Below are positions 25,401 to 52,400 of a stretch of 64,000 nt of DNA, one piece after another. Within the stretch, counting starts at the first letter, position 1; every line of letters starts with the position of its first letter. A program made the position numbers. This DNA is from Escherichia coli (GTDB taxonomy: Bacteria > Pseudomonadota > Gammaproteobacteria > Enterobacterales > Enterobacteriaceae), in assembly GCF_003334765.1 (NCBI RefSeq), contig NZ_QOWT01000002.1; one strand, 5' to 3'.

Positions 25401-28400
25401 CTACACCGTAAAATTTTGCAAACATGTTCATAAATAATAATGTATTACTAACATTTATTAATTGAATTATAATAAAAATCATATCATCAGAACAAAAAAT
25501 TTTATACCCCCCCTTTTTCTTAAGCCTTATTTGTTTAAAAATAACACACTTCTTCATTATTAATAATATTGCATAAACCCCTCTGTAGTTAGCAGTTAAA
25601 ATGCAAACAATGTAAATACTCACTTTGTAGTAAATTAAAATGCCCACGCCTGCAATGAATACGAGTAAAAATATTATTTCAAGTAGTACAAAATTGAGCG
25701 TTTTACCTGTAGCATCATAATATGAAGCAACCACTGGATAATATATATTTATTAACGATACAGCAATAAAAAAACATATTTTACCATATAACGTATCAAA
25801 CCCAACTACATAAAGCGTAGCCAATAATAAACAAAATATTATTAATAAGAATGGATACGTTATTTTCCTCACTGAATATAATAAATAATCAAGCAAATCA
25901 TTTTTTTCTAAATTTGATATCAGATTACGGAAGCTTGCAGTGATGCCGTTTTGTAAAACAGAAATAACGATTGCGTATGTTAGTAAATAAGAATAAATTC
26001 CAAAATCATACTCTGAATAGAATCGTATTATTATTGCAGGAATAAGCAAATTTAATAAAACAACACCCATCTTTAATAAAGATGAACTAAAAAGCAACTT
26101 TATCATAATAACTCACATTTACTTGTTAAGATGATATTGACTTTTTATAATTTAATAAGTCTAATATGAAGCCTGTATATTTTTTAGTTGCGGCCACATC
26201 TCCTCTAGATTCAACGTTTAACCGGACTACGGGTTCCGTATTAGAAGAACGTAAGTTAAAGCGCCATCCATTAAAAGTCATACTTATACCATCTGTACGA
26301 TCGATCTCAATTGCCTTATTTGCATAATAACTTTCAACCCGTGCGATAGCACATAATGGATCTTCCAACGTGCTATTAATTTCCCCACTTGCTGGAAAAG
26401 CTGCCATCCGGTCACGCACAAGTTCGCCCAGCGTTTTTCCTTTCAGACACACCAGTTCGGCTACCAGCAGCCACGGGATCATGCCGCTGTCGCAGTAAGC
26501 GAAATCACGGAAGTAATGGTGGGCGCTCATTTCGCCACCGTAGATGGCGTCTTCCTTGCGCATACGTTCTTTAATAAAGGCGTGTCCGGTTTTCGACATC
26601 ACCGGAGTGCCGCCTGCGGCAGTCACCACATCAACGGTGTTCCAGGAGAGACGTGGATCGTGGATGATCTTCGCGCCGGGATTTTTTTCGAGGAATGCTT
26701 CTGCCAGCAGGCCGACAATGTAGTAGCCCTCAATAAACTGCCCTTTTTCGTCAAACAGGAAACAGCGGTCAAAATCGCCATCAAAAGCAATGCCCATATC
26801 CGCGCCGTGTTTGATGACCGCATTGCGGGTGTCGTCGCGGCATTCCGGCAGCAGCGGGTTAGGAATACCGTTGGGGAAATTTCCGTCCGGCGTGTTGTGC
26901 ACTTTGATCAATTCCACGGGTGCGCCGAGGGCTTTAAAGCGGGCTTCGATGGCGTCAACTACCGGACCCGCTGCGCCGTTCCCGGAGTTGATCACCAGCT
27001 TGAGCGGCGTGAGGTTTTTGACGTTGATATAACCGAACAGGTGATCAACGTATGCATCACGCAGGTTGATTTGCTGATAGCGACCGCGTTTGGTTTCATC
27101 AACGGGAGGAAAGTCGTTGGCTTCTGCCAGGCGCTGGACATCGCGCAGTCCGGTATCGCCGCTGATCGGGCGAGCCCCTTCGCGCACCAGCTTCATGCCG
27201 TTGTAATCCATCGGATTATGGCTGGCGGTAACTTCAATGCCGCCATCCACGCCGAGATGGAACGTGGCGAAATAGATCTCTTCGGTGCCGGACATACCAA
27301 TATCCAGCACATCGACGCCCGCATCCTGTAAACCTTTCGCCAGCGCCAGTTTTAAGGTTTCGCTGGTGAGGCGGACATCACCGCCTAACACAATGGTTTT
27401 CGGTTTGAGAAATTCGCCATAAGCGCGACCAATGCGCCAGGCAATATCTTCATTCAATTCTTCGCCTAATTTCCCGCGAATATCGTAGGCTTTAAAGCAG
27501 GTTAATTTTTTCATTTATTAGTCATCTATTTTGTAACGTTCTTTTTGACGAACAATATCATCCTCACCTAAATAATCTCCTGAACTAACTTCAATAAGAT
27601 TGAGAGGAATTATACCTGGATTTTCAAGGCTATAAGTAGCACCCAGAGGAATATAAACGGATTCATTAGCAGTAACTAAGAAAGTTTTGTTATTTAACGT
27701 TACTTTTGCTGTACCTGAAAGGACAATCCAATGCTCTGAACGATGATGATGCATACGTAAGGATAGCCCTTCCCCTGGTTTAACGACAATCTTTTTGACC
27801 TTATATCGATCTCCCTGTTCTATAGCATCAAACTTTCCCCAAGGCCGAAACTCCTCGCGATGTGATAGATATTCAGAACGTTCTTGCATTTTAAGCATTT
27901 GAACAATTTTCTTAACATCCTGAACTTCGGATTTTTTTGAAACTAGAATTGCATCTTTCGTCTGAACAATAACAATATCTTCCACACCTACAGCGGCTAC
28001 TAAGGCTGACTCCGAATGAATATAATTATTTTTTGTATTATAGGTCAGGATATCACCTTTGCAAACGTCCCCTGTAGGGGTTTTATCACTAACGTCCCAC
28101 AATGATTGCCAAGATCCAACATCGTTCCAACCAATATCAACGGGATAGACTATACAACGCTTTGTTTTTTCCATTACTGCAAAATCAATTGATTCCGATG
28201 GACAATTTTGAAAAACATCTTTCGAAAGTCGTATAAAATCAAGATCATGGTAGGACGAAGAAATTGTTTTTTCACATATATCGTATATATCAGGTCTGTA
28301 TTTTTTTAACTCCTCTAAATATACTGATGCTTTGAACATAAACATCCCACTATTCCAGAGATATTTACCTGAGGAGATATACTCTTCAGCCCTTGAGCGA

Positions 28401-49400: not shown

Positions 49401-52400
49401 TCTGCGGAATTTCCTGCACCAGACCATACAGTTCAGAGGTGGAAGCCTGATAGAAACGGGTTTTCTTTTCCAGACCGAGGAAGCGGATCGCCTCGAGCAG
49501 GCGCAGCGTACCCATCGCGTCGACGTCAGCGGTATATTCCGGTGACTCAAAAGAAACCGCAACGTGGCTCATTGCGCCCAGGTTGTACACTTCATCCGGC
49601 TGCACTTCACGCAAAATACGCGTCAGGTTGGAGGTATCACTCAGGTCGCCATAATGCAGATGGAATTTCGGGTTACAGGTATGCGGATCCTGATAAATAT
49701 GATCCACGCGCTCGGTGTTGAATGACGATGCGCGACGCTTAATACCATGCACCTCGTAACCTTTTTCCAGCAGAAACTCTGCCAGGTAAGAACCGTCTTG
49801 TCCGGTTACACCGGTGATGAGAGCGACTTTTGACATGTCTTATTCCTCTGTATTTTTTGAATTTATTCAGTTTCAACGCGTTCGCGTATCACCACTGCGG
49901 GATTCCCCCGGCAAACCACATTTGCCGGAAGCGTTTTAAAAACACTGCTTCGTGCACCCACGACGGTGCCGTCGCCAATCGTGACGCCAGGGGCAACAAA
50001 AACATCGGTTGCCAGCCAGCATTTCTCGCCAATCACAATAGGCGTAGCATTAATGGTGAAATGTTGACTTGCATGGTCGTGGCTACCGGTGCATAAATAA
50101 CTTTTTTGCGATATCACCGAATGTGCGCCAATGGTTATTTCACCGAGGGTATATAAATTGACGTCATCGCCGACCCACGCGTAATCACCTAAGGTTAATT
50201 TCCACGGATAGGTAATTTTTACTGACGGACGAATAACTACGTTTTTTCCTATTTTTGCGCCGAATAAACGTAATAAAAATGCCCGCCAGCGATACAATAC
50301 TTGTGGCGACCAGGCAAATATTGTTGCCTGTACTGCCCACCATAATTGCACTTTAATAGCGTTGCCGCCCCGGAACCCTTTCGGCACCGAGAAACCGCTT
50401 AAATCTTGCATTGGTTCTCCTTATATTCAGACTTTGTTATATAAGGCTTTCGTCTTTGAGGTAGTACGTTGGCGTAAATGCCAGGATAATTCAGCCCAAA
50501 AGCCAGGTACATGTAATATTTGTCGTTGGACTTTTTTCGCGTCAGCACACAATTCCATATTATTGGTGGTAGATACCCCACCCATGGAAAATTCAGACAC
50601 CAGGCCATTGAGTTTTTTAAATGCATAACCGGCTTTATACATTTTGGCTGCCAGCGCGTAGTCGGAAGAAACTTTATACTCCAGGTCATAACGCCATTTT
50701 TTCAAGCCGGATACAGGGAAAAATATCGCCTGATGACTGGCGGGCAGGCTGTGATAAATATACCAGCCCGGTTTGGCGCTACGTTTAATTTTATGCCCGT
50801 CGCCAAAATCCAGCAGCGCATCGCCGGTGATCATCATGTTATCTTTTTGCATTTTTAACTTACGGACAAAATTTGCGGCATCCTGATGAAAAATATCGCC
50901 CGAATTGAGAAACAACGCGAACTTGCCTTGTGCCATCGTAATGCCTTTGTTCATGGCGTCGTAGATACCGTTATCTGGCTCGCTGACAAAGCGTAGGTTA
51001 TAGATACCATTGAGATTTTCCAGATACTCACGGGTGCCGTCATTGGAACCGCCATCGACAACAATCCATTCGAAGCTGATATCTTCCGCCAGCGCCAGAT
51101 GCGCCAGCGAGGCATGTGTTTTGACTATCCCTTCGAGGTTACGAAACGCGACAGTGATTATGCTAAGCAACATGTTCTTATTCTTACCTCGTAATATTTA
51201 ACGCTTTTCGCAAAATAAACGGACAGACGATTAAAAATGCATATTCCGGGCTAAATATCGAACCGGTAAAAAACAGCGACACCGGAGTAAAAAGATATAA
51301 TTGCACGCGAAAATTGCGGTTATCACCAAAAGCGTTGATCATCATTTTTATCACTTTCCCCATGTACCACAGCGATAAAAACACTGCGAACCAGGAAAAA
51401 TAAATAATCAGCAGATACAAACCATTGTCTATGGTTTTTCCGACATCCGCACCGTTAAATATTCCGAATGATGCGACATATTCATAAAGTGAGCCAAATC
51501 TGACTACACCGTCAATATGGGTCAAAGAATAACCGACCATTACCAGCGGACCGACAATACGATAATACGATGACGATCCTTCCGTACCTAAATCGCCCAG
51601 ACGGGTGGAAATATAAGGAAACGCGATTACCACACCAACCAGGAATACAGCCAGAGAAATCAATGCTAACGGCAACTTTTTCTTAATCGCCTCTTTATTC
51701 AGATATTGAAATGCCCACTCCAGCAAATAAAACAGGATAAAGGTCATAACCCCTGAAAACGATCCGGATAATATTATCCCTGCGAGAATCATAGCATCGG
51801 TTTTAGGCGTTTTGATACCAAACTGTTTGATGCTGAGCCAAATTGAGATTAATGCCAGAGCGAAAAATGCCGGTTCGAAATAAAGTGCTGTCGTGCGCTT
51901 GCCGCCGAATTTAATGAAATTCAGCACATAGCTGTTGCTGTAAATCAGATATTTCGAAATCGACTCCATAATACTGCTGCCACCGGTGAGGATAATTTGC
52001 GCCATCTCCACTGCCGCCAGCGCCACCACCAGCCCGACCACCAGATAAAAGAAACGTAATATCTTGCGATGGTTGTGTGGCGAAATCGTTTTAAAGCGAA
52101 TACTCCACACCATGCCAATAATGATCACAATATAGACAAACAGCATGGTTGAAGTGACGTATTTACTGGCATCCAACGACTGACCAAACAGATAGTTGAA
52201 CGCCGTGAGTCCCGCACCAATCCCTAAGGCAATCATCAATTTTTTAACGCTGATGCGTTCTAAAAACAGCAGTAACAAGACAGGTAAAAAAGTGACGATA
52301 GTGATGGGGAAACTTTCACCAAGCTGGGCGATTTTGACGTTAACCAGCAGGTAGATCAGCGGCAGCAGCAGGTAGCTACAGATTCTGATAGAAGTTGACA

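Follow-up and report, generated by a model that had tools for sequence, protein, structure and literature searches.

Evidence for old and recent exchange between O-antigen and colanic-acid genes in an Escherichia coli O86 chromosome

The window analysed here, i.e. the whole stretch of 64,000 nt from contig NZ_QOWT01000002.1 of Escherichia coli assembly GCF_003334765.1, to which all coordinates refer, covers the region his-gnd-O86 O-antigen cluster-galF-gne-colanic-acid (CA) cluster of an E. coli O86 chromosome. The O86 O-antigen cluster was located at 21199-33701 and the CA cluster from 36231 onward, and all genes predicted as open reading frames (ORFs) within 19.6-55 kb were on the minus strand. 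The O-antigen genes gmd, fcl, gmm, and manB (the last being the counterpart of cpsG) have paralogs in the CA cluster. According to an original prediction made from the sequence alone, the O-antigen gmd-fcl-gmm and the 5' part of manB were near-identical copies of these paralogs, resulting from recent intrachromosomal gene conversion from the CA cluster.

A megablast search with 21100-33900 against 5,426 complete E. coli genomes returned 79 genomes matching at 99% or more across the whole query (best match, 99.9%), in which O86-family wzx and wzy, alpha-1,2-fucosyltransferase, wbnI, gmd, fcl, GDP-mannose mannosyl hydrolase, manC, and phosphomannomutase were annotated. The serogroup-specific part (21199-26106), in a cluster flanked by galF and gnd, shared 99.2-100% identity with 80 genomes possessing O86-family wzx/wzy. 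In O86 strain 190693 the annotated order was his operon-wzzB-ugd-gnd-O86 cluster-galF-gne-wcaM...wcaF. The CA cluster showed the order wcaF-gmd-fcl-gmm-wcaI-cpsB-cpsG-wcaJ-wzxC-wcaKLM upstream of galF, with ORFs collinear with the RefSeq annotation of strains 190693 and S1-SRL-01-C, and this region of the window was 96-98% identical to about 4,700 genomes. For comparison, the same region was taken from six other O86 genomes (L001-L006), including strains 190693 (L001), 88COLEC (L005, NZ_CP070906.1), and S1-SRL-01-C (L006), and both copies of each gene were extracted. Further genomes were those of E2348/69 (L007, NZ_CP059840.2; O127), 83972 (L008, NZ_CP058220.1), TW10590 (L009, NZ_CP035850.1; O128), an O90/O127-type strain (L010), and an E2348/69 derivative (L011, NZ_LT903847.1). 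The features concerned in the window are as follows.

26126-27514, minus strand: O-antigen manB, encoding a phosphomannomutase of 462 aa, chimeric (ORF, protein alignment, and RefSeq annotation of the orthologue).
26126-26370, minus strand: 3' end of manB, divergent, of lower GC and serogroup-specific, 48-68% identical to cpsG in 100-nt windows (alignment).
26371-27514, minus strand: 5' part of manB, CA-like and matching 43361-44504 at 95.9%, with an older layer common to every O86 genome examined and a counterpart in O127 and O128 (BLAST and alignment).
26463-26881 at the maximum (419 nt) and 26600-26807 at the minimum (208 nt), minus strand: putative strain-specific cpsG-to-manB tract (informative sites).
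27518-28975, minus strand: O-antigen manC, AT-rich (GC 0.36) and showing no trace of exchange with its CA counterpart (comparison with cpsB).
29016-31551, minus strand: CA-like block of gmm (28959-29462, minus the last ~55 nt), fcl (29462-30427), and gmd (30430-31551) (alignment).
30634-30749, minus strand: O-antigen-type island of 116 nt in gmd, 69.8% identical to the CA gmd of the window, in a wider low-identity zone at 30597-30810 (alignment).
43134-44504, minus strand: CA cpsG, from which (at 43453-43871) the recent tract was probably copied (comparison with S1-SRL-01-C).
44606-47268, minus strand: CA cpsB (44606-46042) and wcaI (46045-47268) (ORFs and RefSeq annotation).
47265-49836, minus strand: CA gmm (47265-47747), fcl (47747-48712), and gmd (48715-49836), the paralogous block (ORFs, BLAST, and annotation).

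Pairwise alignment of the O-antigen and CA regions confirmed the predicted tracts and their ends. By BLAST, 29016-31545 and 47301-49830 were 95.1% identical over 2532 nt, and an ungapped recount over 29016-31551 and 47301-49836 gave 126 mismatches in 2536 nt (95.03%); the manB block (26371-27514 versus 43361-44504) was 95.9% identical over 1144 nt without gaps, with 47 mismatches. Identity was very uneven, ranging from 100% stretches down to the 70% island at 30634-30749. The longest runs with no mismatch were 419 nt (26463-26881 and 43453-43871), in agreement with a predicted stretch of more than 400 nt in manB/cpsG, 289 nt across the gmd/fcl junction (30207-30495 and 48492-48780), and 214 nt (29389-29602 and 47674-47887). 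One block began exactly at the gmd ATG (31551 and 49836), upstream of which the sequences were unrelated, and ended ~55 nt before the CA gmm stop (at about 29016 and 47301); the other began exactly at the manB ATG (27514 and 44504), and its identity decayed across 26462-26371 into a homologous, highly divergent 3' end. Between them, manC and cpsB gave no long match like those of the flanking blocks, only short DNA pieces at 67-80% by BLAST, and their proteins were 57.8% identical, in line with the moderate similarity expected.

At the protein level the copies were indeed close. Fcl was identical at 318 of 321 residues, the three differences that had been counted beforehand, and Gmd at 360 of 373. 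Gmm fitted the same description as far as about residue 138, up to which there were just two differences, but was divergent beyond (147 identities in 167 alignment columns). ManB and CpsG were 92.4% identical, with all differences but one within the last ~81 residues; codons 1-381 of manB were of the E. coli cpsG type and the last ~81 codons divergent. For the nucleotide sequences "near-identical" is too strong a term, the value being about 95%, right at the limit of ~95% named for refuting the original prediction. The difference in base composition was also as described, with GC contents of 0.525, 0.562, 0.522, and 0.506 for the CA-like gmd, fcl, gmm, and manB, respectively, versus 0.363 for manC, 0.278 for wzx, and 0.28-0.34 for the glycosyltransferase genes, i.e. 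0.51-0.56 versus 0.28-0.36.

Five of the six other O86 genomes (L001-L004 and S1-SRL-01-C) had one common O-antigen manB allele, referred to as canonical below. The window departed from it at 12 positions (26600, 26606, 26612, 26622, 26645-26648, 26654, 26696, 26732, and 26807), the same 12 in each comparison, and at every one of them the window base was that of its own cpsG. The whole O86 cluster of the window differed from each of the five canonical clusters at 14-17 positions in 12.8 kb, 12 of which lay within 26600-26807; the probability that 12 of 14 differences fall by chance within 208 of 12,801 nt is about 3e-20. Canonical O86 manB had 59 differences from the window cpsG in the 1144-nt block, whereas the 419-nt run in the window had none. 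The tract changes two ManB residues, I290S and S298T.

The window cpsG was 100% identical over 1371 nt to cpsG of S1-SRL-01-C, the O-antigen manB of which is canonical. This strain is the "before" state, with an unconverted manB beside the same cpsG allele. As cpsG is unchanged while the 12 manB sites carry the cpsG base, the change appears to be non-reciprocal, from CA to O-antigen, and recent. The donor haplotype of 419 nt was present at 99% identity or more in 106 of 4666 genomes (about 2%); being rare yet resident, it makes a resident donor much likelier than an imported one. Four hallmarks of interlocus gene conversion were observed, namely a bounded tract of high identity, differences from the orthologue that match the paralog, an unchanged donor, and statistical support. 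On these sequence comparisons, the manB tract is best described as a recent, strain-specific, non-reciprocal conversion of cpsG into the O-antigen manB.

The same 419-nt identity could in principle arise in assembly or polishing, if reads or graph paths of cpsG were imposed on manB. The converted allele was found in none of the 5,426 complete genomes, including the 80 with an O86 cluster (best match, 99.1%). On either side of the tract, moreover, even canonical manB does not differ from cpsG over 137 nt (26463-26599) and 74 nt (26808-26881), and in such stretches an assembler or polisher could switch copies. We nevertheless regard such an error as improbable, since cpsG is intact and a natural allele, while a path swap would usually yield a reciprocal chimera; in addition, the assembly looks clean, as the remaining 12.6 kb of the cluster departed from the canonical clusters at no more than 2-5 scattered sites, and these repeats are known to recombine both in nature and in the laboratory.

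A different picture was obtained for gmd-fcl-gmm. The O-antigen copy in the window matched that of strain 190693 completely and those of L002-L004 and S1-SRL-01-C at 99.9%, although the CA alleles of these strains differ, and 88COLEC had a 97.5% variant. The O86 O-antigen copy was 95.0-96.3% identical to the CA alleles, with the window's own CA copy at the low end (95.1%), versus 96.3-98.1% between the CA alleles of different strains; the corresponding ranges for the manB 5' block were 94.2-97.6% (O-antigen copies of O86, O127, and O128 versus CA alleles) and 95.4-96.9%. Special closeness of gmd-fcl-gmm to its own CA copy was considered and rejected, the value of 95.1% being exceeded by those for the CA copies of S1-SRL-01-C (96.3%) and 83972 (96.8%). 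The deficit of the O-antigen-versus-CA comparison for these three genes was mostly due to the gmd island, outside which the two copies in the window were 96.25% identical. No difference from the orthologues that matched the paralog was found in gmd-fcl-gmm, where the window carries the canonical O86 allele. Sharing of this allele by O86 strains with differing CA alleles indicates a layer that is old and cumulative, at the species level, and not a recent event in this strain. Recent intrachromosomal conversion from the CA cluster thus held for one manB tract, at 12 of 12 sites, and was not supported for gmd-fcl-gmm and the rest of the manB 5' part; likewise, the comparison within the serogroup that had been proposed as a check found the manB tract to be strain-specific and gmd-fcl-gmm to be an O86-wide allele.

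The older layer extends beyond O86. A CA-like module with the same block ends was present in E2348/69 (O127), the O90/O127-type strain L010, and TW10590 (O128). In an alignment of four distinct O-antigen alleles with nine CA alleles, only 3 sites separated the two classes; leaving out the CA allele of 83972 raised this number to 35, of which 32 lay within 30634-30749. In a sliding-window comparison, the nearest CA allele shifted along gmd-fcl-gmm and was usually other than the window's own. A GENECONV-style permutation of concordant polymorphic sites detected shared fragments between O86 and the window's own CA copy (289 nt, 20 concordant polymorphic sites), between O86 and the CA copy of S1-SRL-01-C (448 nt), and between O127 and the CA copy of TW10590 (1012 and 563 nt), each with p=0.0005. 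Outside the island, 61 of the 70 differences in gmd and fcl were at third codon positions. These findings show that the O-antigen copies (O86, O127/O90, and O128) and the CA copies form one pool of alleles about 95-98% identical, and that the similarity outside the recent tract, ~3.3 kb at roughly 95%, is old and found throughout the serogroup, a product of cumulative, species-wide concerted evolution.

Common ancestry alone, i.e. one old duplication of the CA genes followed by purifying selection with no later exchange, would at first glance fit an overall identity of about 95%, the near-invariance of the O86 copy among O86 genomes, and the strong constraint on the enzymes seen in Fcl. We consider it highly unlikely. 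Protein constraint is no explanation for differences that are mostly synonymous, and a single old event accounts poorly for blockwise swings in identity from 70% to 100%, for the near absence of fixed O-antigen/CA differences outside the gmd island, and for significant shared fragments that vary by strain pair. Past the block ends, manB and gmm remain homologous but divergent, which points to replacement within an existing homologue and away from a duplication junction, and the strain-specific manB tract is itself direct evidence of exchange.

The gmd island bears on the direction of exchange. It was kept in the O-antigen copies of O127 (98% identical to O86) and O128 (96.5%), and the GC content over 30597-30810 was 0.50 in the O-antigen versus 0.565 in the CA copy. 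Strain 83972 has an O25-type cluster and no O-antigen gmd; its single gmd, in the CA cluster, contains the island (20001-20231 of L008, 97% identical to O86), and its Fcl is the O86 Fcl (WP_000043606.1). Several further genomes gave one gmd match each, likewise at 97.0%. Presence of the island in the CA gmd of 83972 means that O-type sequence has also entered CA clusters, and exchange between the two copies thus appears to run both ways. O86-type fcl fragments were present in the CA clusters of O86 strains. The 289-nt run (30207-30495) was rejected as proof of conversion from O-antigen to CA: its haplotype was exact in the sampled O86 genomes and in at least one non-O86 genome (O158:H23), with 283 genomes at 99% identity or more. 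That the GDP-fucose genes of both clusters constitute one bidirectional pool, in which O-antigen clusters leave lasting footprints in CA genes, is offered tentatively and is still rather doubtful; if true, part of the high polymorphism of wca genes would be a record of past serogroup history. The persistence of the island despite perfect flanking homology could reflect selection keeping about nine Gmd residues (at about 268-305) O-antigen-specific.

Exchange might also have taken place between strains, with DNA incoming by transduction or conjugation bringing CA-type sequence to the O-antigen copy, and O-type sequence reaching CA clusters by whole-region swaps. The wca-O-antigen-his region is known to be replaced between strains especially often (PMC3158064); the CA cluster of the window is a mosaic relative to that of S1-SRL-01-C (cpsG 100%, cpsB 98.5%, and gmd-fcl-gmm 97.1%); CA clusters of non-O86 genomes hold O86-like haplotypes; and, for the island to be in the CA gmd of a strain with an O25 cluster, either one or more inter-strain steps or a conversion followed by an O-antigen switch must have occurred. 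As the origin of the exchanges this is unlikely, however, because transfer alone moves nothing between paralogous positions, so that an ectopic step would still be required, and because the manB donor haplotype, carried by about 2% of the population, equals the resident cpsG over all 419 nt, which makes the resident copy the far likelier donor.

Taken together, an account in two layers, an old species-wide allele pool and a recent strain-specific manB conversion, is very probably correct. Under this account, gmd-fcl-gmm and the first 1.1 kb of manB are direct repeats of CA genes 17-18 kb away and evolve in concert with them through homologous (RecA-type) recombination, which we infer to be intrachromosomal or between sister chromosomes; in the recent step, 208-419 nt of the resident cpsG were copied into manB, with 12 nucleotides and two residues changed. 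The blocks stop where collinear homology stops, namely at the gmd start, at the gmm 3' end by wcaI/manC, and in manB at its start and at its divergent 3' end. wcaI, located between CA gmm and cpsB, has no O-antigen counterpart and breaks collinearity; together with the DNA identity of only 67-75%, in patches, between manC and cpsB, this interruption leaves two collinear homology blocks. With about 70% DNA identity or less, manC and cpsB have presumably diverged too far for such exchange. Since the same chemistry is done by the enzymes of both clusters, the exchanges are probably neutral. The divergent 3' ends of manB and gmm and the lower-GC island in gmd suggest that the gmd-fcl-gmm-manC-manB module was AT-rich and foreign at first and was then progressively overwritten by resident CA sequence, a duplication junction fitting less well.

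Several points weigh against this account. The full alignment took in just nine CA alleles and four distinct O-antigen alleles, and the converted manB allele is known from one sequence only. The window lineage has no close relative among the complete genomes searched, its best match in the distal half of the CA cluster being 98.3%, so the event can be neither placed on a tree nor dated. The 289-nt haplotype occurs, exactly or nearly so, in non-O86 CA clusters and could be inherited allele sharing.

A Chi site (GCTGGTGG) was located at 28926-28933 on the minus strand, in the AT-rich gmm/manC overlap and ~85 nt from the end of the CA-like block, and a scan of the window found none within manB. 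No conclusion was drawn on Chi as a cause of the tract ends, Chi being enriched throughout the window (14 sites versus 1.6 expected), as is usual in E. coli.

Some further variation was observed at the locus. The O86 cluster of 88COLEC was a variant, 98.7% identical overall and with a manB 96.6% identical to the canonical allele; its fcl region and ManC (WP_001286272.1) matched the O127/O90 module, and the cluster looks like a recombinant of O86 and O127/O90-type clusters. The CA cpsG of TW10590 (32545-33916 of L009) is annotated as frameshifted and its O-antigen manB is intact, which suggests that the paralogs can back each other up. In RefSeq (PGAP), the orthologues of window 26126-27514 in L001-L010 are named "cpsG: colanic acid biosynthesis phosphomannomutase", a misnaming of the O-antigen manB caused by the chimeric, CA-like 5' part of the gene. 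The cpsG-cpsB spacer (44505-44605) was 101 nt in the window and S1-SRL-01-C, 192 nt in 88COLEC, and 280 nt in L001-L004, and the wcaK-wzxC spacer (40134-40204) was 71 nt in the window and S1-SRL-01-C and 179-564 nt in the other strains compared; these differences are probably REP-type insertions. In O86 wzy, a poly-G tract (23747-23756, minus strand) varied in length among genomes. The window has G10 and a wzy that is broken into two ORFs (22946-23758 and 23725-24273); L002 and L004 agreed with the window at this tract and are likewise annotated as frameshifted, the G9 genes of 190693 and S1-SRL-01-C are annotated as frameshifted, and the G11 gene of L003 was intact. Slipped-strand switching of O-antigen polymerisation on and off could be the cause, or else sequencing error in the homopolymer.

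Exchange between these paralogs can mislead serotyping by PCR or in silico, as well as phylogenies based on single-nucleotide polymorphisms that include manB, gmd, fcl, and gmm, and read mappers and annotation pipelines mix up the two copies. The same repeats can delete 18-23 kb, abolishing the synthesis of both O-antigen and colanic acid. Resident paralogs can progressively "domesticate" O-antigen clusters that came from low-GC sources, and the locus described here offers a natural before/after pair for a short bacterial conversion tract, of 208-419 nt with 12 markers.

A deletion of this kind was observed in the E2348/69 stock represented by CP059840.2, in which wcaF is followed directly by gmd-fcl-gmm-manC-manB-wzx(O127). 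Its gmd is chimeric (19841-21537 of L007), with a CA 5' part and an O127 3' part, and ~18 kb are missing, comprising the distal half of the CA cluster, gne, galF, and the first two O127 genes (galE and a family-4 glycosyltransferase gene, GT4). The E2348/69 derivative (LT903847) and the O90/O127-type strain have the normal galE-GT4-gmd layout. The stock and the derivative were identical from manC to position 20323 of L007 and then differed at 20 sites over the first 640 nt of gmd; the deletion is the outcome of a crossover inside the gmd paralogs, between 20232 and 20324 of L007.

Jensen and Reeves are said to have described, in Microbiology in 2001, chimeric manB genes in Salmonella enterica O-antigen clusters, reportedly with a 5' part like the resident cps manB and a low-GC, O-antigen-specific 3' part, much as in the window, although in a different species. 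The original papers on the O86 and O128 clusters reportedly noted the high identity and E. coli-like GC content of gmd, fcl, and gmm. In a review, as quoted, O86 and O127/O90 are given as more than 96% identical in their first seven genes (Feng et al. 2005, via PMC7685785); the part quoted treats serogroup relationships, exchange with CA genes not being its subject. As cited in the same review, the O14 type strain lost its O-antigen cluster through manB-manB recombination (Jensen and Reeves 2004, via PMC7685785). Separately, manB-cpsG deletions occurred in 10 of the 12 populations of the long-term evolution experiment (PMC4173774; bioRxiv 10.64898/2026.06.14.732165). The same direct repeats serve as recombination substrates in these cases and in the window, but there crossovers delete an interval of ~23 kb and leave one chimeric gene, whereas in the window both copies are kept and a non-reciprocal patch is observed. 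A close parallel is O157, where the CA cpsG is reported to have replaced or converted the O-antigen manB (Samuel et al. 2004, as cited in Iguchi et al. 2011, PMC3158064). Identity between the two genes exceeds 95% there, gene conversion within the genome was put forward, the gene pair and chromosomal layout are the same, and no gene of the O-antigen cluster, otherwise conserved, varies as much as manB. The window is distinct from O157 in being O86, in having the event resolved to 12 sites in 208-419 nt, with S1-SRL-01-C as an unconverted comparator, and in the involvement of gmd-fcl-gmm. Current understanding is thus unchanged, the process being already known for manB/cpsG; what is new is a well-resolved instance in O86, together with the single allele pool, the gmd island, and the apparent two-way flow, which refine and extend what is known from O157, O14, and Salmonella.

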